Source: Candidatus Infernicultor aquiphilus
GTDB lineage: Bacteria > Atribacterota > Phoenicimicrobiia > Phoenicimicrobiales > Phoenicimicrobiaceae
Reading direction: 5' to 3'
DNA length: 42,882 bases
Assembly (NCBI GenBank): GCA_001873345.1
Contig: MNYY01000051.1
Location: 1-42,882 of the forward strand
The notes under the pieces were generated by a model, which searched no databases, was not told where the DNA came from, and saw nothing but the letters and a program-made list of their open reading frames with translations. A program made the translations under genes and the position numbers. This document shows positions 7,261 to 42,882 of this stretch, one piece after another. Each line of letters begins with the position of its first letter. The first letter of the stretch is position 1.

Positions 7261-7698
7261 ATGCCAGAGGAAGAAATAATTGTCGCTATCGACCCTGGTA
7301 CCAAAAAGTGTGGCTATGCAGTAGTGGATTCTAATTTAAATGTTTTACAAAGAGAAGTTACTTTAGCAGAGAGAATAATAAATAGGATTAAAAATAGTTT
7401 TAAAGTTTACAATATAGAGGGGATTATTTTAGGAAAGGGCACTAATTATAAACAGATAGAAAATAAATTAAAAAACTATTTTCCTCGATTAAAAATTATC
7501 TTAATTGAGGAAAATTTCAGTACTTTAGAGGCAAGAAAAAAATATTTTGAAGCCTATCCACCTCGAGGTATTTCTAGACTTATCCCTCTATCCTTAAGAG
7601 TACCCCCTTGCCAATATGATGATTTTGTAGCAGTACTATTAGCAGAAAAGTATTTTAAAAATAAAAATAGTAGGGGCAGACCTTGTGTCTGCCCGTAA
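7261..7698 (+). CDS. YqgF/RuvX-like (RNase H-fold) putative nuclease; last 9 codons and stop supplied by a REP
   Basis: 145-aa ORF with AAGGAG upstream. The motifs IVAIDPGTKKCGYAVVD, IEENFSTLEAR and DDFVAVLLAEKYF resemble the YqgF family pattern. The C-terminal SRGRPCVCP-stop is encoded by REP copy 7670-7695. Confidence 0.45.
   Translation: MPEEEIIVAIDPGTKKCGYAVVDSNLNVLQREVTLAERIINRIKNSFKVYNIEGIILGKGTNYKQIENKLKNYFPRLKIILIEENFSTLEARKKYFEAYPPRGISRLIPLSLRVPPCQYDDFVAVLLAEKYFKNKNSRGRPCVCP
7670..7695 (+). repeat. REP element (GTAGGGGCAGACCTTGTGTCTGCCCG), forward orientation
   Basis: 8-bp stem GGGCAGAC/GTCTGCCC with a 5-nt loop and a 5' GTAG. The same 26-mer recurs at 12163, 12513, 22508 and 35577. 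Confidence 0.9.
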
Positions 7699-7733: not shown

Positions 7734-7736
7734 GAC

Positions 7737-7771
7737 GCGATATGCGATATGCGATATGCGATATGCGATAC
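7737..7771 (+). repeat. Module M2: heptamer tandem repeat (GCGATAT)x4 + GCGATAC
   Basis: Five contiguous 7-bp units ending 7 nt (ATG 7778) or 22 nt (TTG 7793) before the candidate hypB starts. Confidence 0.95.
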
Positions 7772-7777
7772 GAATAA

Positions 7778-10811: not shown

Positions 10812-10818
10812 TAGCTTA

Positions 10819-10865
10819 TTGGTTAATCGGTGAATTGGTAAATCGGTCAATTGGTGAATTGAATT
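10819..10865 (+). repeat. Module M1: octamer array (GGTNAATY)n, forward
   Basis: TTGGTTAATCGGTGAATTGGTAAATCGGTCAATTGGTGAATTGAATT. It runs into the hypC SD. Confidence 0.9.
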
Positions 10866-10878
10866 AGAGGTGAAGAAA

Positions 10879-11094: not shown

Positions 11095-12191
11095 AATATA
11101 TTGATGAGTATAGGGATAAAAGAATAGCTCAAAACATCTTACAAAAAATTAATATTATTTCCAAAAAAAAGGTAAATTTAATGGAAGTTTGTGGAACCCA
11201 CACGGTAGCTATATTCAGAAATGATATCAAAAAAATATTACCTACCAATATTAATCTTATTTCTGGGCCGGGTTGCCCAGTATGTGTTACTCCCGTTTCC
11301 CATATTGATGAGATAATTAGTTTATCCCGAAAAGAAGATTTTATTATAACTACTTTTGGAGATATGATCAGGATTCCAGGTTCTACTTCTACTTTAGAGA
11401 AAGAAAAAACTAATAGTGCAGACATTAGAATTGTTTATTCTACTTTAGATGCTTTAAAAATTGCCCAAAATAATCCTTCCCAAGAGGTTATTTTTATGGG
11501 GGTGGGTTTTGAGACAACTTCTCCTACTATAGCCAGTGCAATATTAAAAGCCCAAGAAGGTAAAATTAATAATTTTTCTGTTTTGAGTGTAGCCAAGATT
11601 ATGCCTCCAGTAATGAAAGCTTTATTAGAAAGTAAAGAGGTAAATATTGATGGGTTTATTTGCCCCGGACATGTAAGTGCCATTATTGGGAGTCAACCTT
11701 TTAATTTTATTGCTGCTCAGTATGGAGTTCCTTGTGTCATCTGCGGATTTGAACCATTAGATATTTTAGAAGGTATTTATATGCTTATTAATCAAATTGA
11801 AAATGATAAAGCAGAAGTGGAAATTCAATATAAACGCGTAGTTAAACCAGAAGGGAATAGGATTGCCCTAGAGAGAATTAATGAGGTATTTAAAGTGGTT
11901 GATTCTAATTGGAGAGGGATAGGCAATATCCACCATAGTGGTTTAGAGATAAAAGATAAATATAATCAGCATAATGCCAGAAGATTTAAAGTGGAAATAG
12001 AAGAAACTAAAGAACCAAGAGGATGTCGTTGTGGCGAAGTCTTAAGGGGAATAATTATTCCTCCTGAATGTCCTCTCTTTGGAGAGATTTGTACCCCTGA
12101 AGACCCCCAAGGTGCTTGTATGGTTTCCAGTGAAGGCACCTGTGCCGCCTATTATAAATACAGTAGGGGCAGACCTTGTGTCTGCCCGTAA
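11091..12191 (+). CDS. hypD: Hydrogenase maturation Fe-S protein HypD; last 9 codons and stop supplied by a REP
   Basis: 366-aa ORF. The TTG start overlaps the hypC stop (TTGA). MKYIDEYRD, CGTHT, GPGCPVCV and the C-terminal CxxxP region match HypD. The C-terminal SRGRPCVCP-stop is REP-encoded, identical to the tail of ORF 7261-7698. Confidence 0.9.
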   Translation: MKYIDEYRDKRIAQNILQKINIISKKKVNLMEVCGTHTVAIFRNDIKKILPTNINLISGPGCPVCVTPVSHIDEIISLSRKEDFIITTFGDMIRIPGSTSTLEKEKTNSADIRIVYSTLDALKIAQNNPSQEVIFMGVGFETTSPTIASAILKAQEGKINNFSVLSVAKIMPPVMKALLESKEVNIDGFICPGHVSAIIGSQPFNFIAAQYGVPCVICGFEPLDILEGIYMLINQIENDKAEVEIQYKRVVKPEGNRIALERINEVFKVVDSNWRGIGNIHHSGLEIKDKYNQHNARRFKVEIEETKEPRGCRCGEVLRGIIIPPECPLFGEICTPEDPQGACMVSSEGTCAAYYKYSRGRPCVCP

Positions 12192-12257: not shown

Positions 12258-12875
12258 ATGTTGTCCATGAACATTAAAAATAAGAAGTGTAATCGTCAGT
12301 CTATTCGTCTTCATGGATACAATTATTCCTATCCTGGAGCATATTTTATAACCATATGTACCCCAGAACAGAAAATGTTGTTAAAATTTAAATATGTGCA
12401 GGTAATGATTCATTCTGTTTGGAATAGTTTACCCGATAGATTTCCTTCTGTAAAATTAGATGAATTTGTAATAATGCCAAATCACGTGCATGCAATTTTG
12501 TGTATAAATATAGTAGGGGCAGACCTTGTGTCTGCCCGTAATAAGGCAGACCTTTTGTCTGCCCCACCGCTTAGTCGTATTATTCAAGCATTTAAATCAA
12601 TTACAACTTATAAATATATTTTAGGGGTGAAAATAAATAATTGGCCAATGTTCAATAAACGCCTATGGCAACGGAATTATTATGACCATATAATACGTAG
12701 CGAGGAATCGTTGAATTGCATTAGAGAATATATTATTAATAATCCAACTCGATGGGAATTTGATAAGGAAAATCCTCGGGGTAAAATAGATAAAAAAGAG
12801 GAAGATTTTTGGAAGGAAATACACTCTCAACCTAAAATTAGGGCAGACATAAAGTCTGCCCCTACAAGGCGTTAA
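12258..12875 (+). CDS. REP-associated tyrosine transposase (RAYT, IS200/IS605 Y1 HUH family)
   Basis: 205-aa ORF. A start at ATG 12267 is more likely, 9 nt after AGGAG. SIRLHGYNYSYPGAYFITICT, the HUH motif MPNHVHAIL (HVH at 12483-12491) and LWQRNYYDHIIRSEESL...YIINNP are family hallmarks. REP DNA lies inside the ORF and at its 3' end. Confidence 0.8.
   Translation: MLSMNIKNKKCNRQSIRLHGYNYSYPGAYFITICTPEQKMLLKFKYVQVMIHSVWNSLPDRFPSVKLDEFVIMPNHVHAILCINIVGADLVSARNKADLLSAPPLSRIIQAFKSITTYKYILGVKINNWPMFNKRLWQRNYYDHIIRSEESLNCIREYIINNPTRWEFDKENPRGKIDKKEEDFWKEIHSQPKIRADIKSAPTRR
12513..12565 (+). repeat. REP doublet inside the RAYT coding sequence
   Basis: 12503-12564 matches 12153-12214 at 60 of 62 positions. 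Here it is read in another frame, as VGADLVSARNKADLLSAP. Confidence 0.9.
12841..12865 (-). repeat. REP, inverted orientation, forming the RAYT 3' end
   Basis: GGGCAGACATAAAGTCTGCCCCTAC. The stem is identical to the REP stem but the loop differs. It encodes RADIKSAPT. Confidence 0.85.
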
Positions 12876-12924: not shown

Positions 12925-13935
12925 ATGAAGGAAGATAAAATATTGCTAAGTCATGGTAGCGGAGGTAAATTATCTTATAAGCTAATCAAGGAATTATTTT
13001 TAGCTAATTTTAATAATAATTATTTGAAAAAACTTGATGATGGTGCGATATTAAATATAGATGGATTAAATTTGGCTTATACTACTGATTCTTATACCGT
13101 GGACCCTTTGTTTTTTAAAGGAGGGAATATTGGAGAGTTAGCAGTTTATGGTACAGTTAATGATTTAGCAATGTGTGGAGCAACCCCTTTATATTTAAGT
13201 TGTTCTTTTATTATTGAAGAGGGGATGCCTTTAAGTTTATTAGAGAAGATTGTCTTCAGTATGAAAAAAGCCTCAGCGATTGCCAGAGTAGATATTGTAA
13301 CTGGAGATACTAAAGTAGTGAATAAAGGAGCGGCAGATAAAATATTTATTAATACTTCAGGTTTGGGAGTAGTGGAAGATGGAGTAAATGTTTCTGGAAG
13401 TAATGCTCAATTAGGAGATATAATTATCATAAATGGTCCTATAGGCAATCACGGGATTGCGGTTTTATCAGAAAGGGAAGGCTTAAAATTTGAAACAGAG
13501 ATCCAAAGTGATACTGCTCCACTTTCTTCTTTAGTCGCAGATATATTAAAAGTTAGTAAAGATATTCATGTCCTAAGAGATCCTACTCGGGGAGGTTTGG
13601 CTACTACTTTAAAGGAGATAGCTCTATCTTCAAAAGTAGATCTAGAAATAAATGAAGAAGATATCTATATTCAGGAAGAGGTAAGAGCAGCATGTGAAAT
13701 ATTAGGTTACGACCCCTTATACCTGGCCAATGAAGGAAAATTGGTAGCCTTTGTTCCATTAGAGATGGTTTCTGATATCTTAATAAAGATGAGAAAAAAT
13801 AAATATGGTAAAGAATCAAAAGTTATTGGGAAAGTATTAAAAAGTTCAGAAGGAAAAGTTTATCTTAATACTATCATTGGTGGAAAAAGAATAGTCGATA
13901 TGCTAACTGGTGAACAATTGCCCAGGATATGTTAG
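12925..13935 (+). CDS. hypE: Hydrogenase maturation carbamoyl dehydratase HypE
   Basis: AIR-synthase-like fold motifs (SHGSGG, DDGA, GTVNDLAMCGA) and the invariant C-terminal PRIC. ATG 12925 is preferred because GGAAGGGA lies upstream. The track start at 12907 is also possible. Confidence 0.9.
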   Translation: MKEDKILLSHGSGGKLSYKLIKELFLANFNNNYLKKLDDGAILNIDGLNLAYTTDSYTVDPLFFKGGNIGELAVYGTVNDLAMCGATPLYLSCSFIIEEGMPLSLLEKIVFSMKKASAIARVDIVTGDTKVVNKGAADKIFINTSGLGVVEDGVNVSGSNAQLGDIIIINGPIGNHGIAVLSEREGLKFETEIQSDTAPLSSLVADILKVSKDIHVLRDPTRGGLATTLKEIALSSKVDLEINEEDIYIQEEVRAACEILGYDPLYLANEGKLVAFVPLEMVSDILIKMRKNKYGKESKVIGKVLKSSEGKVYLNTIIGGKRIVDMLTGEQLPRIC

Positions 13936-13973
13936 TCAATTAACCTATTCCCCAATTCACTAATTCACCAATT
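13936..13973 (-). repeat. Module M1 octamer array, reverse complement, starting 1 nt after the hypE stop
   Basis: TCAATTAACCTATTCCCCAATTCACTAATTCACCAATT is the complement of the AATTGG-type octamers. Confidence 0.9.
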
Positions 13974-14192: not shown

Positions 14193-14256
14193 CTAATTAA
14201 ACTAATTGGGTAATTGGCCAATAGGAGAATTGGTGAATTGATATATTGGTAAATTT
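14193..14256 (+). repeat. Module M1 octamer array, forward
   Basis: CTAATTAAACTAATTGGGTAATTGGCCAATAGGAGAATTGGTGAATTGATATATTGGTAAATTT. It ends 20 nt before ATG 14277. Confidence 0.9.
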
Positions 14257-14801: not shown

Positions 14802-14802
14802 A

Positions 14803-14863
14803 TTCGTATCTCGTATTTCGTGAATCGTATCTCGTAAATAAAATAGAATCCAGAATCCAGAAT
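14803..14863 (-). repeat. Module M2 reverse (14803-14838) followed by module M5 heptamers (14843-14863)
   Basis: TTCGTATCTCGTATTTCGTGAATCGTATCTCG is the reverse complement of 26607-26638 at 31 of 32 positions. ATAGAATCCAGAATCCAGAAT follows. Confidence 0.9.
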
Positions 14864-14889
14864 AATAAATAAATTAGAGCGTTTAGGAG

Positions 14890-14961
14890 GTAGGGGCTCG
14901 ATTCATCGAGCCCGCTTGGGAAGTTACCAAACAATGCGGGTCGAATAAATTCGACCCCTAC
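14890..14961. repeat. GC-rich hairpin pair H2 + H3 bracketed by GTAG...CTAC
   Basis: GTAGGGGCTCGATTCATCGAGCCCGC ... GGGTCGAATAAATTCGACCCCTAC. Paralogues are at 32027-32083 and 36274-36330. H2 alone occurs at 30667-30692. Confidence 0.9.
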
Positions 14962-14984
14962 TCCAAAATTAGAGCTCCCAATGA

Positions 14985-15031
14985 CTAACGACTAATAGAC
15001 AGGCGAGACGCCTGTCCTACTAACGACTAAT
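14985..15031 (+). repeat. Hairpin H4 (GACAGGCG-AGA-CGCCTGTC) flanked by an 11-bp direct repeat TAACGACTAAT (module M4)
   Basis: CTAACGACTAAT-AGACAGGCGAGACGCCTGTCCTAC-TAACGACTAAT. H4 recurs at 30757-30781 and, inverted, at 42626-42650. Confidence 0.9.
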
Positions 15032-15049
15032 TAAGAGGTGATTACTTAA

Positions 15050-17161: not shown

Positions 17162-17311
17162 ATTAGTCGTTAGTGAATAGTATCTCGTATAATTAGCATA
17201 GAGCGTATAGCGTTTAGCTTACTTGTCACTTATTACACATTACGCAACTTACTCACAGACTGGCTAACTGATTTAATTGGAGAATTGGTTGATTGGCTAA
17301 TTGATAAATTT
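17162..17311. repeat. Composite spacer: M4 reverse, M2 reverse, M6, M3 forward, M12, M1 forward
   Basis: Modules in order: ATTAGTCGTTAGTGAATAG (17162-17180), TATCTCGTATA (17181-17191), GCATAGAGCGTATAGCGTTTAGC (17196-17218), TTACTTGTCACTTATTACACATTACGCAACTTACTCAC (17219-17256) and the octamer array (17273-17311). Confidence 0.85.
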
Positions 17312-19530: not shown

Positions 19531-19700
19531 TTACTTAGTTATCCGGTTAGCCAGTTACTTAGTTTGCCGGTTAATAGGTTTTAGGGCATAAGTTTCGAGT
19601 TTTAAGTTTTAAAGAGGAGTTTGGGTTGGATTCACCCAATCTGTCTGTTCCTTCTGTTATTCCTGCTGGCTAACCGGTAACTGGTAAACTGGCCAACTAA
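19531..19700. repeat. Inverted M12 arms (CCGGTTAGCCAGTTAC-type) around an 84-bp centre
   Basis: The left arm is 19531-19578 and the right arm is 19663-19700. They share CTGGCTAACCGG(A)TAACT in inverted orientation. Confidence 0.8.
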
Positions 19701-19703
19701 TAT

Positions 19704-19749
19704 AATTGGAGAATTGGAGAATTGGTCAATTGGTCAATTGGTCAATTGG
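19704..19749 (+). repeat. Module M1 octamer array: (AATTGGAG)x2 (AATTGGTC)x3 AATTGG
   Basis: Perfect 8-bp phasing. It ends 11 nt before ATG 19761. Confidence 0.95.
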
Positions 19750-19760
19750 AATATAATAAA

Positions 19761-20773: not shown

Positions 20774-20880
20774 TTGGTTAGATAGTTAATTGGTTACCTG
20801 GTTAGTTAGTTGATGAATTAAAATCAAACCAGCTAACCAGCTAGCTAGCTAGCTAACTAACTAACTAACTAACTAACTAA
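20774..20880. repeat. Palindromic GGTTAG/CTAACC-type arms ending in microsatellite (CTAG)x3 (CTAA)x7
   Basis: The left arm is 20774-20813, the loop is TGAATTAAAATCA and the right arm is 20827-20880. (CTAG)3 lies at 20841-20852 and (CTAA)7 at 20853-20880. Confidence 0.9.
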
Positions 20881-20920
20881 TTCTGCTTTAAGTTTAAAAT
20901 TTAAAAGAAGAGGTCTTTTA

Positions 20921-25311: not shown

Positions 25312-25409
25312 CTTAGGTCTTGACTAAATAGTTTTTATTAGGTATATTGAAAAATAAGAACTATATTAGCATATAGGAAATGGTTAAAGATAGTTAGGTT
25401 TAGTATTTT

Positions 25410-25438
25410 TTGACAACAAAATTGTATCATGTTATAAT
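25410..25438 (+). promoter_or_regulatory. Perfect consensus sigma-70 promoter (TTGACA-17-TATAAT) with no obvious CDS behind it
   Basis: TTGACA is at 25410-25415, followed by a 17-bp spacer and TATAAT at 25433-25438. A weaker TTGACT-17-TATATT lies at 25320-25348. Confidence 0.5.
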
Positions 25439-25552
25439 TTTTTTAATCAAAATCATACAGAAAAGAACAGGAAATTGACAGTGCTGACTAATATTGATGG
25501 AACTAAAAACATTAAGAAGAGAAAAAATTGAATATTAAATAAATTATTCCAG

Positions 25553-25586
25553 AAACACAGTAGTAATTGTTACTGTGTTTATTTTT
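25553..25586 (+). terminator. Putative intrinsic terminator about 110-140 nt downstream of the consensus promoter
   Basis: 10-bp stem AAACACAGTA/TACTGTGTTT with loop GTAATTGT, followed by ATTTTT. Confidence 0.45.
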
Positions 25587-25635
25587 AAGGTAAGGTATAG
25601 GAATTATTAAAATTCCTATACCTTACCTTAAAAAT
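25581..25635. other. Perfect 25-bp inverted repeat with a 5-nt loop (possible bidirectional terminator or processing hairpin)
   Basis: ATTTTTAAGGTAAGGTATAGGAATT-ATTAA-AATTCCTATACCTTACCTTAAAAAT. It is unique in this window. Confidence 0.6.
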
Positions 25636-25997
25636 AAGAAAGATGATTTATTATAAAGAAATATTAAAGACCAGATAGACCAGATATTCAAGGGTGTAAT
25701 AAATATTGAGGTGAGAAGGAATTAAAGGGTTTTCAAGGGGAAAAATTCCCCTTGAATATCTTATAATATGTATTTAAATATTTACTAAAATGGGGGAGGT
25801 AATAACAGCTATGTGAAAAATCTGGAGTAAATTGCTCAAATTAAGTAGTTGGGAGGTAAGAGATTAAAATAAATTAAACCATATTATTTTAATTAGTAGT
25901 TTTAATATTGCAATTAACAGGTGTTTATTGTAATAAGCTAATACAGATGCGAAGTGCAATAAATTATAAAAATAAAACTAAAAAGGCGGTGTGTTAA

Positions 25998-29063: not shown

Positions 29064-29091
29064 CACGAGATACGATATACAATATACGAAA
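29064..29091 (+). repeat. Module M2 forward (CACGAGATACGATATACAATATACGAAA)
   Basis: Degenerate ATACGA heptamers abutting the rplY SD. Confidence 0.8.
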
Positions 29092-29106: not shown

Positions 29107-29832
29107 ATGGAGACATCGAAATTAGAAGTAGAATTAAGAAATGGAACTGGGAAAGAAATTAATAAGAAATTTAGGAGAAAAGGTGATATTCCTGGAATAC
29201 TATATTCTCCTCATGATAAAGAAAATATACTGTTAAAAGTTAAAAGAGAAAATTTATTAAGATTATTAGCTAGCAAAACACACCAACTCATTGATTTAGA
29301 AATAGATGATGGGAATAAAAAAGTTAGCCGATTAGTTGTGATTAAAGACTTTCAGTATAATTCTTTAAAGAAGCAGATAGTTCATGTTGATTTTTATGGA
29401 GTAACTCTAAAAGAGAAATTAACCATGGAAATTAATATTGAATTAATAGGCCAACCTATCGGAGCAATAGATGGGGGAATTTTAAATGTGGAATTACGAA
29501 AAGTTGAAATAGAATGTTTACCTTCTAAAGTACCTGAGAGTTTAAAAGTAGATCTAAGTAATCTGAAGATAGGAGATAATATTACAGTTGGAGAAATACA
29601 GCTTCCTGAAGGAGTTGAAGTATTAACTAAATCAGATAGAATTGTTGCTGCCTTAGTTCCTCCTGCTAAAGAAGAAGAGGTAGTTAAAGAAGTAGTAGAA
29701 GGGGAAGCAGTAACCGAAGAAAAAGAAGTAACTAAAGGAGAAGAAAAAGTAGAAGTAAAGACAGAAACTCCTTCTTCTGCACCAAAAAAAGAATCTAAAA
29801 AAGAATCTAAAAAAGAATCTAAAAAAGAATAG
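29107..29832 (+). CDS. rplY: 50S ribosomal protein L25 / general stress protein Ctc, with a low-complexity K/E tail
   Basis: LEVELRNGTGKEINKKFRRKGDIPGILY and a Ctc-type second domain. The tail ends KKESKKESKKESKKE. ATG 29107 is preferred, 8 nt after GGAGG. The track ATG at 29092 overlaps the SD. Confidence 0.85.
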   Translation: METSKLEVELRNGTGKEINKKFRRKGDIPGILYSPHDKENILLKVKRENLLRLLASKTHQLIDLEIDDGNKKVSRLVVIKDFQYNSLKKQIVHVDFYGVTLKEKLTMEINIELIGQPIGAIDGGILNVELRKVEIECLPSKVPESLKVDLSNLKIGDNITVGEIQLPEGVEVLTKSDRIVAALVPPAKEEEVVKEVVEGEAVTEEKEVTKGEEKVEVKTETPSSAPKKESKKESKKESKKE

Positions 29833-29857: not shown

Positions 29858-30442
29858 TTGAAGATGGTAGTTGGTTTGGGTAATCCTGGTTTGCAATATG
29901 AATTCAGTCGACACAATATAGGGTTTAGAATAATTGATAACTTAGCTCTAAATATAGAAATAGAATTTAAAAGGGTGAAATCTTATGATTCATTAGTTTC
30001 CCGAGGGAAACTAATGAATCATAAATTAATATTGGTAAAACCGCAGACTTATATGAATTTAAGCGGGAAATCAGTAAGCAAGATTGTTTCCTACTACCGG
30101 ATATCCTTTCCAGATTTATTGATAGTTTATGATGATCTGAATTTAGAATTAGGTCAGATCAGGATCAGGAAAAGAGGGAGTGCTGGCGGTCATAAGGGAG
30201 TGGAGTCGATTATTCAATATTTAAATAGTGAAGATATACCTCGTTTAAGAATAGGGATTGGTAAACCTTCAATAAATTCTAATTTTGATTATGCCTCTTA
30301 TGTCCTTTCTAATTTTAATAATAACGAAAAGGATAAAATAAGTGAAGTAATACAACTATCTACTGAGGCAATAAAGACAGTAATAGAAGATGGCCTTGAA
30401 AAAGCGATGAGAAAATACAATAGAAAATTGGAGCTATCTTAA
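29858..30442 (+). CDS. pth: Peptidyl-tRNA hydrolase
   Basis: VVGLGNPGLQYEFSRHNIGF, PQTYMNLSG and GSAGGHKG. The start is TTG 29858 or ATG 29864. Confidence 0.9.
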   Translation: MKMVVGLGNPGLQYEFSRHNIGFRIIDNLALNIEIEFKRVKSYDSLVSRGKLMNHKLILVKPQTYMNLSGKSVSKIVSYYRISFPDLLIVYDDLNLELGQIRIRKRGSAGGHKGVESIIQYLNSEDIPRLRIGIGKPSINSNFDYASYVLSNFNNNEKDKISEVIQLSTEAIKTVIEDGLEKAMRKYNRKLELS

Positions 30443-30523: not shown

Positions 30524-30560
30524 ATTCTAATCCTTCAAATTTCTTCGGTAGAAGTAATTC

Positions 30561-30625
30561 TTATCTCGTATCTCGTAAAGAAAATAGAAGTCAGAATTCA
30601 GAAGTCAGGATCCAGAAGTCAGGAG
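30561..30625 (-). repeat. Module M2 reverse (30561-30580) followed by M5 heptamer array (30586-30625)
   Basis: TTATCTCGTATCTCGTAAAG, then AGAAGTC AGAATTC AGAAGTC AGGATCC AGAAGTC AGGAG. Confidence 0.9.
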
Positions 30626-30692: not shown

Positions 30693-30710
30693 TAAAAACT
30701 TAATAAAGAG

Positions 30711-30781
30711 ATTGCCACGCTCTGATAAATCAGAGCTCGCAATGACTGACGACTAATAGACAGGCGAGACGCCTGTCCTAC
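30711..30781 (+). repeat. Hairpin module M9 (ATTGCCACGC..GCTCGCAAT) + M4 + hairpin H4
   Basis: ATTGCCACGCTCTGATAAATCAGAGCTCGCAATGAC TGACGACTAAT AGACAGGCGAGACGCCTGTCCTAC. The inverted copy is at 42626-42696. Confidence 0.9.
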
Positions 30782-30790
30782 GAATTTTTT

Positions 30791-30944
30791 GGTAAATTGG
30801 TAAATTGGAGAATCGGTAAATTGGTAAATTGGAGAATCGGTAAATTGGTCAATTGGAGAATCGGTAAATTGGTCAATTGGAGAATCGGTAAATTGGTCAA
30901 TTGGAGAATTGGTAAATTGGTTAATTGGTTAATTGATAAATCGG
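30791..30944 (+). repeat. Module M1: five tandem 24-bp units (three octamers each, GGTAAATT-GGTMAATT-GGAGAATC) plus a degenerate tail
   Basis: Units lie at 30791, 30815, 30839, 30863 and 30887, and the tail is 30911-30944. The array overlaps the GGAGG SD (30943-30947) of pfkA. Confidence 0.95.
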
Positions 30945-30957
30945 AGGTAAAATTATT

Positions 30958-31923
30958 ATGAAAATGAAAAAAATTGTTGTTCTTACCAGTGGTGGAGATT
31001 CTCCTGGAATGAATGCTGCTATTAGAGCGGTGGTACGAACTGGCCTATTCCACGGCTTAGAGGTATTTGGTGTGGAAAGAGGGTATACCGGTTTAATAGA
31101 AGGGCAAATTTTTCCGATGAATATATCTTCAGTAGGTGGAATTATACAAAGAGGAGGAACTATTCTTAAGACTTCCCGTTGTGAGAAATTTAAAACTAAG
31201 GAGGGGCTTGATATGGCCCTTCAAAAAATTAGAGAATTTAATATTGATGGATTAGTAGCTATTGGGGGGGACGGTACTTTTCGAGGGATTCGAGAGTTCA
31301 GTGCTTTAGGAGTAAAAACTATGGGAGTTCCCGCTACTATTGATAATGATTTATCTGACACTGATATGGCTATTGGTGTAGACACTGCTTTAAATACAGT
31401 TATGGGGGCTATTGACAAAATCAAAGATACTGCTTCTTCTCATGAGAGAGCTTTTATAATAGAAGTTATGGGAAGAAATTCAGGTTATCTGGCCTTAATG
31501 GGTGGAATTGCTGGAGGAGTTGAAGTTATTCTTATTCCGGAAATTTCTTATAATCTCCCGGAAATTAGTTTAAAATTAAAAGAGGGCTACCAAAGAGGAA
31601 AGTCTCATTGTATTATTGTTATTGCTGAAGGAGTCGGAGAGACTTATGAAATAAGTAAATTTTTAGAAGATAAAATTGGCTTTGAAACGAGAGTTACTAT
31701 TTTAGGTTATTTGCAGAGAGGTGGTTCGCCTTCTGCATTTGATAGGTTATTAGCCAGTCGTTTGGGAGCAGCAGCTGTAGAACATCTACTAAAGGGAGAA
31801 ACATCTAAAATGGTAGGACTAATGGGAAATAAGATTGAAGCAACTGATTTAGAGGTAGTGCTTAGTCAACCAAAAACTATTAGCCAGGATCTTTATAATT
31901 TAGCTTTAAGGTTAGCGAAATAG
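30958..31923 (+). CDS. pfkA: ATP-dependent 6-phosphofructokinase
   Basis: VLTSGGDSPGMNAAIRAVVR, IGGDGTF, PATIDNDL, MGRNSGYLAL and GYLQRGG. Confidence 0.92.
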   Translation: MKMKKIVVLTSGGDSPGMNAAIRAVVRTGLFHGLEVFGVERGYTGLIEGQIFPMNISSVGGIIQRGGTILKTSRCEKFKTKEGLDMALQKIREFNIDGLVAIGGDGTFRGIREFSALGVKTMGVPATIDNDLSDTDMAIGVDTALNTVMGAIDKIKDTASSHERAFIIEVMGRNSGYLALMGGIAGGVEVILIPEISYNLPEISLKLKEGYQRGKSHCIIVIAEGVGETYEISKFLEDKIGFETRVTILGYLQRGGSPSAFDRLLASRLGAAAVEHLLKGETSKMVGLMGNKIEATDLEVVLSQPKTISQDLYNLALRLAK

Positions 31924-31926
31924 TAG

Positions 31927-31974
31927 TTCGTATCTCGTAGATAAGACAGAAGACAGAAGTCAGAAGTCAGAATA
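31927..31974 (-). repeat. Module M2 reverse (31927-31939) followed by M5 heptamers (31947-31974)
   Basis: TTCGTATCTCGTA, then CAGAAGA CAGAAGT CAGAAGT CAGAATA. Confidence 0.9.
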
Positions 31975-36244: not shown

Positions 36245-36392
36245 ATATGGCGGGTAGAGTTTAGCGTGTAGAGGTAGGGGCTTGATTTATCAAGCCCGCA
36301 GAACTCGGGTCGGATAAATCCGACCCCTACATCAAAAACAATACTTTATTGACTTAGCCTATACGCTAAACGCTGTACGCTATACGCTAACC
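36245..36392. repeat. Nested palindrome: M6 forward, hairpin pair H2+H3 (36274-36330), M6 reverse
   Basis: ATATGGCGGGTAGAGTTTAGCGTGTAGAG, then GTAGGGGCTTGATTTATCAAGCCCGCAGAACTCGGGTCGGATAAATCCGACCCCTAC, then TACGCTAAACGCTGTACGCTATACGCTAACC. Confidence 0.9.
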
Positions 36393-36408: not shown

Positions 36409-36476
36409 AATTGGCAAATTGGCAAATTGGTAAATTGGCAAATTGGTGCATTAGTGCATTGGTAAATTGGAGAATT
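36409..36476 (+). repeat. Module M1 octamer array, forward (8.5 units)
   Basis: AATTGGCA AATTGGCA AATTGGTA AATTGGCA AATTGGTG CATTAGTG CATTGGTA AATTGGAG AATT. The last GGAG serves as the SD for ATG 36482. Confidence 0.95.
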
Positions 36477-42496: not shown

Positions 42497-42616
42497 AATT
42501 GACCAATTCGCCAATTCTCCGATTAACCAATTAGTCAATTCACCAATTGACCAATTAATCAATTTACCAATTGACCAATTAATCAATTTACCAATTGACC
42601 AATTCACCAATTAACC
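42497..42616 (-). repeat. Module M1 octamer array, reverse complement: 15 phased octamers (AATTNNCC)
   Basis: It starts 6 nt after the bamA stop. The internal 24-bp period (AATTTACC AATTGACC AATTAATC) mirrors the pfkA-upstream array. Confidence 0.95.
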
Positions 42617-42625
42617 AAAAAATTC

Positions 42626-42696
42626 GTAGGACAGGTGTCTCGCCTGTCTATTAGTCGTTAGTCATTGCGAGCTTTGATTTATCGAAGCGTGGCAAT
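42626..42696 (-). repeat. Inverted copy of H4 + M4 + M9 composite
   Basis: GTAGGACAGGTGTCTCGCCTGTCTA TTAGTCGTTA GTCATTGCGAGCTTTGATTTATCGAAGCGTGGCAAT. It is the reverse complement of 30711-30781 with a few substitutions. Confidence 0.9.
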
Positions 42697-42882
42697 CTCT
42701 TTATTCAACTAAAAAATTAAAGCAAAAAGCGAAAAATTATAATTTAAAATTTAAAACTTTTTCTCTTGTATATCGTATAATATATTGAGTATTACGATTA
42801 TTAGAGTACAGGATATGTAGAAGTCGGATTTATCCAACAAAAGACGCAATATGCAATACTATATAAAAAATTTAAGGAGGAG

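Follow-up and report, generated by a model that had tools for sequence, protein, structure and literature searches.

Phased octamer arrays at open reading frame boundaries in Candidatus Infernicultor aquiphilus (Atribacterota): length-variable repeats running into Shine-Dalgarno sequences

Introduction

Why should a tandem repeat end exactly where a ribosome-binding site (RBS) begins? This question is raised by a 42,882 nt contig of Candidatus Infernicultor aquiphilus (Atribacterota; assembly GCA_001873345.1, contig MNYY01000051.1), the whole of which we call the window. Upstream of its pfkA gene, phased octamers of the form AATYGGNN merge into the Shine-Dalgarno (SD) sequence. An initial annotation, made from the sequence alone, had noticed similar arrays at other genes and proposed that they act as ribosome standby or anti-SD-titrating sites, as binding arrays for a protein or as slippage-prone expression tuners. 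The window has 32% GC, carries all genes on one strand and shows strong GC skew. It is 99.9% identical to contigs of GCA_002789755.1 and GCA_002779155.1, and its PfkA is 83.5% identical to that of an Atribacterota-labelled metagenome-assembled genome (MAG) with conserved gene order.

Our analysis makes it somewhat probable that the arrays are slippage-driven minisatellites which form the terminal module of an intergenic mosaic, that their last unit supplies the SD, and that any effect on expression is incidental.

Results

Structure of the pfkA-upstream array

The octamer unit can be written in two registers, AATYGGNN and GGNNAATY. Tandem Repeats Finder (TRF) reported the pfkA array with a period of 24 (30791-30928, 5.8 copies, 97% matches, 0 indels) and also with a period of 8 (30789-30941, 19.1 copies, 0 indels). 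Five 24-nt superunits, GGTAAATT-GGTMAATT-GGAGAATY, are followed by a degenerate tail, GGTAAATT GGTTAATT GGTTAATT GATAAATC. The SD lies directly 3' of the array and in its register, and the stretch GGAGGTAAAATTATTATG is constant in all strains. The five 24-bp units and degenerate tail leading into the SD, as first described, were thus recovered, and the strict 8-bp phasing is kept in every pfkA allele. As head-to-tail units of 5-11 nt beyond chance expectation, the array is a long simple sequence repeat.

At its 5' end, the array is joined to a hairpin resembling a repetitive extragenic palindrome (REP), which opens with GTAG when read on the minus strand (Table 1). This module occurs again at 14966-15023 (93% identity) and, inverted, at 42623-42680 (91%). 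The longer block that contains it recurs inverted after bamA; the pair forms 209-nt arms that are 85% complementary.

The RNA fold predicted for the pfkA leader was no more structured than that of shuffled sequence (z = 0.07), on which ground we rejected a structured RNA in the leader, and the SD was likewise predicted to be open. A search against Rfam matched only five tRNAs and gave no known RNA family for the array. CRISPR arrays consist of direct repeats of 23-50 nt with unique spacers of similar length between them; the contiguous 8-nt units, which have no spacers, do not belong to this class. A coding role or N-terminal extension was also rejected, as pfkA alleles differ in length by 8, 16, 24 or 48 nt. 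Every change is a multiple of 8, but some are not divisible by 3, and hence no coding constraint acts on the arrays.

An array family at ORF boundaries

We scanned the window in phase for AATTGGNN, requiring at least three units and at least 5/6 core matches to AATTGG. Eight octamer arrays were found, compared with 0.06 in mononucleotide shuffles. All eight adjoin the boundary of an open reading frame (ORF; Fisher-combined p = 1.2e-5): six lie in sense before a start codon and two in antisense after a stop codon (Table 1). The sense arrays end 14, 25, 21, 9, 11 and 5 nt before the start codon, and the antisense arrays lie 0-5 nt after the stop codon. Pfam names for the products concerned are HypC, AMMECR1, MreC, DUF951, PFK, TamB and Omp85.

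The initial annotation had placed arrays 11-20 nt before hypC, the AMMECR1 gene, mreC, the DUF951 gene and tamB. The arrays are present at all five genes, although the measured distances span 5-25 nt. Its suggestion that the arrays belong at start codons needs amendment in another respect: the array at 42497, which it had listed with the others, has the opposite orientation and follows the bamA stop codon, and a second antisense array overlaps the hypE stop codon. No window array is remote from genes, since eight of eight touch an ORF boundary, six of them before starts.

Table 1. Arrays and associated features of the window
Feature	Position	Strand	Remarks
hypC-upstream array	10817-10872	+	6 units + 1 degenerate, into SD AGAGGTGA; ATG 10879
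ORF with Y1-transposase (IS200/RAYT-like) remnant, between hypD and hypE	12258-12872	+	PF01797
Antisense array overlapping hypE (AIRS-family) stop codon	13934-13973	-	5 units
AMMECR1-upstream array	14204-14251	+	6 units; GTG 14265 or ATG 14277
Array between mreB and mreC	17275-17306	+	4 units; mreC TTG 17328
AACYGGNN-type antisense array directly after M16 peptidase stop codon	19529-19580	-	related octamer type
DUF951-upstream array	19704-19751	+	6 units, 2 GGAG; 9 nt before ATG 19761
Non-tandem part of composite block	30702-30790	+	hairpin, ACGACTA heptamers, REP-like hairpin
REP-like hairpin + GAATTTTTT, constant array head	30757-30790	+	TAG-ACAGGCG-AGA-CGCCTGT-CCTAC
pfkA-upstream octamer array	30791-30942	+	19 phased GGNNAATY units
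pfkA SD and start	30943-30960	+	GGAGG 30943-30947, 10-nt spacer, ATG 30958
tamB-upstream array	36409-36476	+	last unit GGAGAATT (36469-36476) = SD for ATG 36482
bamA 3' antisense array	42497-42618	-	15 units, 5 nt past stop codon 42489-42491
Inverted REP-like hairpin + heptamer block, counterpart of pfkA head	42619-42705	-	module string 'o11 R d A'

The motif AATYGGAGAAT occurs 10 times in the window against 0.22 expected: five times upstream of pfkA, twice upstream of the DUF951 gene and once each in the mreC, tamB and (in antisense) bamA 3' arrays. The first reading had counted five GGAG motifs before pfkA and two before the DUF951 gene, and had identified the last tamB octamer, GGAGAATT, as the SD itself. 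Both observations hold, and the tamB start assumed here agrees with public gene calls (1380-aa product). It had also warned that ORF callers extend N-termini into the arrays. Mechanically called ORFs do open inside arrays at 19722 and 36467, and public calls of the DUF951 gene vary between 62 and 75 aa. Within the pfkA array of contigs L007 and L219, spurious ORFs of 60-62 aa are called.

The antisense array after the M16 peptidase gene pairs with sense AACYGGNN units at 19668-19703. The M16-DUF951 intergenic region is bounded by inverted octamer arrays, and its predicted RNA fold is stable (z = -3.2; 0 of 200 shuffles as good). The hypE-AMMECR1 region is bounded in the same way, with 13934-13973 predicted to pair with 14220-14255 in the RNA (fold z = -1.85). 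As a general device, inverted arrays at both ends of a region were rejected, because only two of the six intergenic regions carrying sense arrays have them.

Unit anatomy

Unit statistics were drawn from 185 units in 34 arrays (the window and 20 related loci). Positions 1-6 read AATYGG, in part because the search itself selected for this core. At position 7, T (63% of units) is more frequent than A (19%), C (16%) and G (3%), and position 8 is nearly uniform. Of the 35 units with A at position 7, 29 continue with G (p = 4e-9), which marks AATTGGAG as a distinct recurrent unit. This GGAG unit accounts for 16% of units family-wide. It resembles the usual SD context of the genome (A/T-rich, then GGAG), and at several loci and in several species the last array unit is the SD itself.

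Membership in the class of G-quadruplex (G4)-forming repeats, which calls for three or more G per unit so that four units can build a quadruplex, was rejected: GGG is present in 4% of units in the listed Atribacterota MAG arrays and in 46% of those in the listed arrays of other phyla. The single GG per unit with 6-nt loops also speaks against a quadruplex. By the ViennaRNA energy rule, a two-tetrad quadruplex with such loops would be expected to be unfavourable.

Length variation between strains

Contigs of related strains were recovered from metagenomes by exact-protein look-up with the PfkA, MazG and radical-SAM proteins. In 18 contigs that matched PfkA or MazG exactly, the pfkA array comprised 7, 13, 16, 18, 19 or 21 octamers, and at least 15 different array sequences were present. 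The head (...CCTACGAATTTTTT) and the tail (GGTTAATTGGTTAATTGATAAATC-GGAGG...) were constant, and the phase was always kept. One allele (L006) has no GGAG unit. The bamA 3' array comprised 10, 12, 15 or 18 octamers; its steps of 16 or 24 nt mostly correspond to the 24-nt triple AATTGACC-AATTAATC-AATTTACC.

The remaining arrays differed little. Upstream of the DUF951 gene, contig L128 is without one GGTCAATT unit. Strains differ in the hypC array by four substitutions, three of them at NN positions. The AMMECR1 array is the same in six of seven strain contigs, the seventh (L131) differing solely in the flank 5' of the array. The mreC array is invariant, and the tamB array is unchanged with invariant spacing. 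Slippage rates are expected to rise with repeat number; near-invariance of the arrays of 4-6 units together with variability of the long ones fits slippage or unequal recombination.

The pfkA array thus behaves as a variable-number tandem repeat (VNTR), with copy number differing between close genomes as represented by short-read assemblies. That the arrays are copy-number-variable and slippage-prone had been suggested from the start. Array length is indeed not invariant, with 7-21 octamers before pfkA in contigs of identical PfkA and 10-18 after bamA.

Turnover among relatives

We then followed the pfkA-upstream region along a ladder of PfkA orthologues taken from metagenomes. At 98% PfkA identity (L134), it holds six octamers with neither the 24-mer nor an internal GGAG. 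At 94-95%, there are no octamers, and two TAACGAC heptamers precede the same SD. At 93%, one contig carries three octamers and another none, and at 84% and 75%, different octamer arrays are present. Orthologues of 73-74% identity have a terminator, a promoter-like TGGACA-17-GATACAAT and other short repeats in the 5' untranslated region (5'-UTR), and those of 64% identity or less have no short tandem repeats upstream. Judged by this comparison of sequences, a short tandem repeat before the pfkA SD is a persistent habit of the lineage, and the array of the window appears to be young and dispensable.

Polarity in other genomes

In about 186,000 reference genomes, a scan for the octamer pattern gave more than 118 matches, and those listed include 16 arrays from about 12 Atribacterota MAGs. 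Of these 16 arrays, 14 have an ORF boundary 3' of the AATYGGNN strand, which is a start in sense orientation for 10 and a stop in antisense orientation for 4; no array has a boundary on the 5' side. Orientation was associated with boundary type (p = 1.3e-5 among the Atribacterota matches listed), and all eight window arrays obey the same 3'-side polarity.

Listed arrays from other phyla differ. They are mostly homogeneous (fraction of distinct NN 0.34, versus 0.81 in Atribacterota), their units often contain GGG (46% versus 4%), and their polarity is opposite or absent. On these features of sequence, they constitute a different class. Their opposite polarity matches the rule published for G-rich heptamers of Xanthomonas and Nostoc (PMC4692102). 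A general rule by which G-rich strands point outward to ORFs was rejected. In a comparison of the left and right ends of 16 intergenic regions, end GC skew was 0.22 versus 0.18 (Wilcoxon p = 0.94); equal skew at both ends implies that polarity belongs to individual repeat families.

Viral contigs contributed 27 matches, almost all homogeneous arrays of one or two unit types. None of the 27 showed the mixed-unit pattern or flanking Atribacterota modules, and the viral arrays are uninformative for this reason. In two viral contigs (L226 and L240), the octamer array is followed by a CTAC-tagged hairpin.

Repeats adjoining octamers were also seen outside Atribacterota. In a Desulfonatronovibrio MAG (L019), the octamer array adjoins AGAAGTC/AGAGGTC heptamers, as in the window, and in Aliinostoc (L072), it lies beside heptamers in which ACTGGGG is mixed with AATTGGGG. 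These neighbours suggest a repeat vocabulary partly common to different phyla. Two contigs of another lineage with 60-65% GC and a 60% identical PfkA (L157 and L158) have the same layout upstream of pfkA, namely GATTGSC short repeats and then a GTAGGGGC...GCCCCTAC hairpin; the L158 leader continues with GGACYAC heptamers, which run into a GAGGAGG SD.

The intergenic mosaic

Intergenic sequence makes up 13% of the window, and yet 17 of 18 strict period-7 arrays and 14 of 15 period-8 arrays are intergenic. Tandem periods of 5, 6, 9 and 10 are rare or absent. We mapped eight module types, including A (CGTAT), B (CAGAA), C (GTAATG), REP, D (CGACTA) and O (octamers). They recur in the order CGTAT, CAGAA and GTAATG heptamers, REP pair, CGACTA heptamers, REP and octamers. 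The octamer module is always last when in sense and first when in antisense. The pfkA block (hairpin, CGACTA heptamers, REP, octamers) is inverted after bamA, which explains the antisense array there.

The GC-rich intergenic hairpins open with GTAG, as in GTAGGGGCAGACCTTGTGTCTGCCC. The GTAGGGGC hairpin motif is enriched (13 occurrences) and often forms inverted pairs that are 97-100% complementary. GTAG-tagged hairpins are a hallmark of REPs (PMC3733652, PMC2817692). The pfkA array itself is a direct repeat and not an imperfect, hairpin-forming palindrome with a terminal GTAG or CGTC tag, as found in REPs and bacterial interspersed mosaic elements (BIMEs); its neighbouring modules are such palindromes.

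Between hypD and hypE lies an ORF with similarity to the Y1 transposases that include the REP-associated tyrosine transposases (RAYTs). The Pfam match (29.5 bits, cutoff 23; residues 105-162) covers the C-terminal half of the Y1_Tnp domain alone, so the ORF is probably a remnant. Inverted GTAGGGGCAGACC hairpin arms bracket it at 12513-12537 and 12841-12865, giving the arrangement of a RAYT flanked by inverted REPs. It is absent or shortened in three otherwise 99.9%-identical strains (L127, L129 and L130). From its sequence and setting, the ORF is a candidate mobiliser of the REP-like modules.

REP-like hairpins also reach into two genes, whose final codons and stop codon they provide. The tail of HypD (...SRGRPCVCP before the stop) is encoded by a REP-like hairpin, AGTAGGGGCAGACCTTGTGTCTGCCCGTAA (12153-12191), and a RuvX-like ORF (7261-7698) ends inside the same hairpin type, AGTAGGGGCAGACCTTGTGTCTGCCCGTAA (7660-7698). 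The ORF with the Y1_Tnp remnant contains, at 12503-12564, a second copy (97% identity) of a 62-nt stretch spanning the hypD 3' end and the REP.

Heptamer arrays are present in nearly every longer intergenic region, for example at 7735-7772, 14802-14863, 30559-30624, 31941-31972 and 36359-36389, with the units GCGATAT (five copies), CGTATCT, AGAAGTC/AGAATCC, GTAATGA, TAGCGTT and ACGACTA. CGTATCT-type arrays tend to follow stop codons, and their reverse complement precedes start codons (29070-29089, 7735-7772). The window shares a 248-nt spacer between the AMMECR1 and radical-SAM genes (14802-15049) with L127 and L129, whereas L128 and L130-L133 have 319 nt; the 71-nt difference is a module gained or lost in the mosaic.

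Further repeats and rearrangements were recorded in the same contigs. L131 has a DDE_3 transposase gene in place of the DUF2232 gene. Upstream of the latter (start 20921), a (CTAA)12/AGCT run faces an inverted GGTTAG-type array at 20774-20882, with hairpin arms of about 38 nt. The peptidyl-tRNA hydrolase ORF pth contains a perfect 20-nt inverted repeat with a 2-nt loop at 29983-30024 (TTATGATTCATTAGTTTCCC/GGGAAACTAATGAATCATAA), and a perfect 27-nt palindrome with a 5-nt loop (25579-25637) lies in the otherwise repeat-poor, 686-nt intergenic region 25312-25997. The ribosomal protein L25 gene (29092-29832) has in-frame repeats at 29716-29830, consisting of 3.8 copies of the 12-nt AAAAAAGAATCT plus 24-nt units. 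The called L25 protein has 230, 235, 237, 241 or 246 aa in strains with identical neighbouring genes.

Discussion

Origin of the arrays

If the arrays arose by slippage, the pfkA array would be a hypervariable octanucleotide minisatellite that was recently amplified as a 24-nt triple-octamer. Units would be gained and lost in 8- and 24-nt steps by slipped-strand mispairing or unequal recombination. The family appears to be specific to this lineage (JS1-type Atribacterota) and would build its intergenic regions together with heptamers and GTAG-tagged REP-like hairpins. With the 3' end of the array (AATYGGNN reading) facing the nearest ORF, either in sense before a start or in antisense after a stop, the last GGAG or GGTG unit of a sense array would double as the SD. 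The array-into-RBS layout would then reflect geometry and descent, and we infer no dedicated ribosome-loading design. Unit number may still matter, through 5'-UTR length, SD-like GGAG/GGTG sites or pairing with antisense arrays, as incidental tuning. Polar, hypervariable intergenic repeats of 7 nt are known in other phyla (PMC4692102, PMC4679880).

Several observations weigh against this explanation. The AATYGG core is kept across loci and species while positions 7-8 are free. Simple neutral slippage predicts uniform units and overall decay; the kept core thus gives a hint of selection or of a generating process specific to the motif. GGAG also stands out as a non-random unit type. The most degenerate units adjoin the ORF, which indicates that simple growth toward the ORF, halted by selection, does not describe the arrays. 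Slippage alone also leaves the fixed module order and the ORF-facing polarity unexplained. Moreover, the allele lengths come from short-read metagenome assemblies of a repeat of about 150 nt, in which collapsed or chimeric alleles are possible; L217 has an N gap inside the pfkA array, and the L007 and L008 contigs break at it.

We tentatively entertain, although we think it improbable, that the arrays are the footprint of an Atribacterota-specific system, either a nucleic-acid-binding factor that reads the core once per 8 nt or a REP/RAYT-linked, directional generation of repeats. If true, such a system would impose an ordered intergenic 'grammar' of heptamer arrays, REP hairpins and octamer arrays, as well as an ORF-facing polarity opposite to that of the Xanthomonas/Nostoc G-rich heptamers. 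The lineage would then offer a handle on how and why repeats of this kind arise and persist.

The reading closest to the initial annotation treats the arrays as cis-acting elements of the 5'-UTR: ribosomes, through standby or additional SD-like GGAG/GGUG sites, or an RNA-binding protein that covers 7-8 nt (S1, a Csp-type oligonucleotide-binding fold, or CsrA on GGA) would be drawn to the transcribed (AAUUGGNN)n tract, and unit number would tune translation. Some 70% of arrays lie in sense with their ends 2-60 nt ahead of a start codon, the SD is often formed by the last unit, and the preference for the GGAG unit as well as the predicted lack of structure in the pfkA leader would suit such a role. 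Arrays within likely operons (hypF/hypC, mreB/mreC) are probably transcribed, into 5'-UTR or intercistronic RNA. There are precedents in the TAACTGA repeats upstream of start codons (PMC4679880), in the Haemophilus influenzae hmw (ATCTTTC)n tract, whose length in the 5'-UTR sets expression (PMC12721329), and in the heptamer repeats found at Nostoc start codons (10.1101/2022.06.06.494920). In the window and the listed Atribacterota, however, between a quarter and a third of the arrays are antisense and directly follow stop codons. Alleles free of GGAG exist (L006, L134), GGAG units are only the 16% minority given above, and array-free orthologues keep the same SD. CsrA-type arrays present several GGA motifs, usually in the loops of hairpins and with one across the SD; here, GGAG units recur at 24-nt intervals before pfkA, but they are in the minority family-wide and missing from L006 and L134. 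The arrays adjoin housekeeping genes that have no relation to one another and are all equipped with strong SDs. Nor could a promoter be placed upstream of the pfkA array: consensus scans for promoters and terminators ran at or below chance in the AT-rich window, and no terminator was found beside the array or in its intergenic region. A ribosome standby site is a single-stranded tract beside a structured, occluded RBS that raises initiation. Since the pfkA leader is predicted to be unstructured and its SD open, no standby site would be needed there. Standby or anti-SD titration, as first proposed, is neither supported nor refuted, and the standby idea is weakened by the antisense arrays after stops, the GGAG-free and array-free variants, the genes' own SDs and the unstructured leader. 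On balance, we regard a dedicated 5'-UTR function as unlikely.

The arrays may instead work as DNA. Ribbon-helix-helix proteins of the Omega or ParG type coat heptad arrays, and IHF or gyrase act on BIMEs. A protein that reads AATYGG every 8 bp could coat an array cooperatively and organise or insulate gene boundaries. Polarity follows the side of the ORF and not start versus stop, which points to a rule at the DNA level, and an ORF-side rule has been reported for G-rich heptamers, too (PMC4692102). The core is kept with a variable 2-bp spacer and an 8-bp phase free of indels, and the arrays are physically joined to REP-like hairpins. Against this, there is no known candidate for the protein, the number of units varies freely from 3 to 21, and close relatives lack arrays at orthologous sites. 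Furthermore, 8 bp is not the helical repeat, so that successive sites would face different sides of the helix. We consider such a tract quite unlikely.

Distinctly unlikely, in our view, is that the arrays are passive ends of a mobile composite element, comparable to a miniature inverted-repeat transposable element (MITE), a REP-derived REPIN or a BIME, which is moved by a RAYT-type Y1 transposase or by recombination. Array positions would then be insertion sites and not sites of growth in place. This idea draws on the 209-nt block present in both orientations (85%), on the 58-nt module present three times (91-93%) and on the strain-variable Y1_Tnp remnant flanked by inverted REPs. The same opening, CCCCTAC-NN-AATTGGTA AATTGGAG AATTGGTC, recurs in two other MAGs (L027 and L067), and the two intergenic regions bounded by inverted octamer arrays look as if they had terminal inverted repeats. 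However, the hypC, mreC and DUF951 arrays have no adjacent REP, no target-site duplications or empty sites were identified, and unit sequences differ between loci. Between the arrays and the stop codons or SDs that they adjoin, no 'original' spacer is left. That the repeat or its variation is an assembly artefact is extremely improbable. Short-read assemblers do break or gap the array (L007, L008, L217), but identical heads and tails occur in more than 18 independent assemblies (JGI, ENA, NCBI), related arrays occupy the orthologous site in other species, and the window is 99.9% identical to the two NCBI assemblies across the array regions.

Comparison with known repeat systems

To our knowledge, intergenic tandem repeats of 7-8 nt (the STRR, TAACTGA and GGGNATC types), recognised decades ago in a few phyla, still have no accepted origin or function. 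Atribacterota would be a new phylum for such repeats. In the literature searched, we found no paper tying Atribacteria or Atribacterota to tandem, simple-sequence or REP repeats, and the descriptions of cultivated Atribacterota isolates in that literature make no mention of intergenic repeats. The natural allele series at housekeeping genes would permit direct tests of tuning by unit number. In practice, the arrays interrupt short-read assemblies and cause gene callers to extend N-termini or to predict spurious ORFs; they could also be used as strain markers for this groundwater lineage.

The unit of one of the short tandemly repeated repetitive (STRR) families, STRR2, is TTGGTCA, which equals the octamer TTGGTCAA minus one A. 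Cyanobacterial STRR heptamers and long simple sequence repeats of 5-11 nt (Mrazek 2007, as cited in PMC4679880) resemble the present arrays as intergenic head-to-tail units of 7-8 nt that occupy many loci, fall into several unit families per genome and vary between close relatives. STRRs, too, often adjoin start codons (10.1101/2022.06.06.494920). STRR1-3, however, are heptamers of heterocystous cyanobacteria, whereas the arrays described here belong to an Atribacterota host and have an 8-nt unit with a fixed 6-nt core and two free positions, heterogeneous units, ORF-facing polarity and a fixed place among other modules.

In marine Beggiatoaceae, cyanobacteria and Bacteroidetes, direct repeats of TAACTGA precede start codons (MacGregor 2015, PMC4679880). 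Like the octamers, they are forward tandem repeats a few nucleotides from the starts of unrelated genes, and a role in translation has been proposed for them, though not shown. They differ in unit sequence and length. In the Beggiatoaceae genome, the repeats coincide in part with the expected RBS and few RBSs are canonical, whereas here a strong SD is kept at every gene and is itself the last array unit. A further difference is the quarter to third of arrays that lie antisense after stop codons. With six of eight window arrays placed before starts, two after stops and canonical SDs present, the family falls outside the TAACTGA type.

The G4-forming heptamers GGGNATC and GGGGAYT of Xanthomonas and Nostoc (Rehm 2015, PMC4692102) share with our units a G-run followed by AATC or AATT. 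They are intergenic and length-variable between relatives, show no link to gene function and are polar to the nearest ORF whatever its orientation. Here, each unit has only GG (GGG in 4%), so that a stable G4 is not expected, and the ORF lies 3' of the G-rich strand instead of 5' as in Xanthomonas and Nostoc.

In phase-variation contingency loci, the repeat lies inside the ORF or between the -35 and -10 elements of a surface or virulence gene and switches it on and off. We rejected this class, because the arrays lie upstream of the SD or after stops of housekeeping genes and are not bracketed by promoter hexamers. Closer are the repeats whose length in the 5'-UTR tunes expression, (ATCTTTC)n at H. 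influenzae hmw1A (PMC12721329) and (AGAT)n at Moraxella uspA2 (as cited in PMC4679880), where a variable-number repeat likewise separates the upstream region from the start codon. Those repeats occur at single contingency loci, which encode surface proteins of host-adapted pathogens, whereas here many arrays adjoin housekeeping genes of a groundwater anaerobe.

The surrounding modules, finally, resemble the REP/BIME mosaic elements with their RAYT transposases (PMC2817692, PMC3733652): the hairpins are GTAG-tagged, alternate in orientation and follow a set order with short intergenic motifs, and the Y1 remnant has inverted REPs. The octamer arrays, however, are direct repeats, and BIMEs have not been described with variable-number tandem terminal modules. 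New here are the fixed-core octamer, the heterogeneous arrays, a polarity opposite to the published one and the ordered mosaic in which the arrays are placed.

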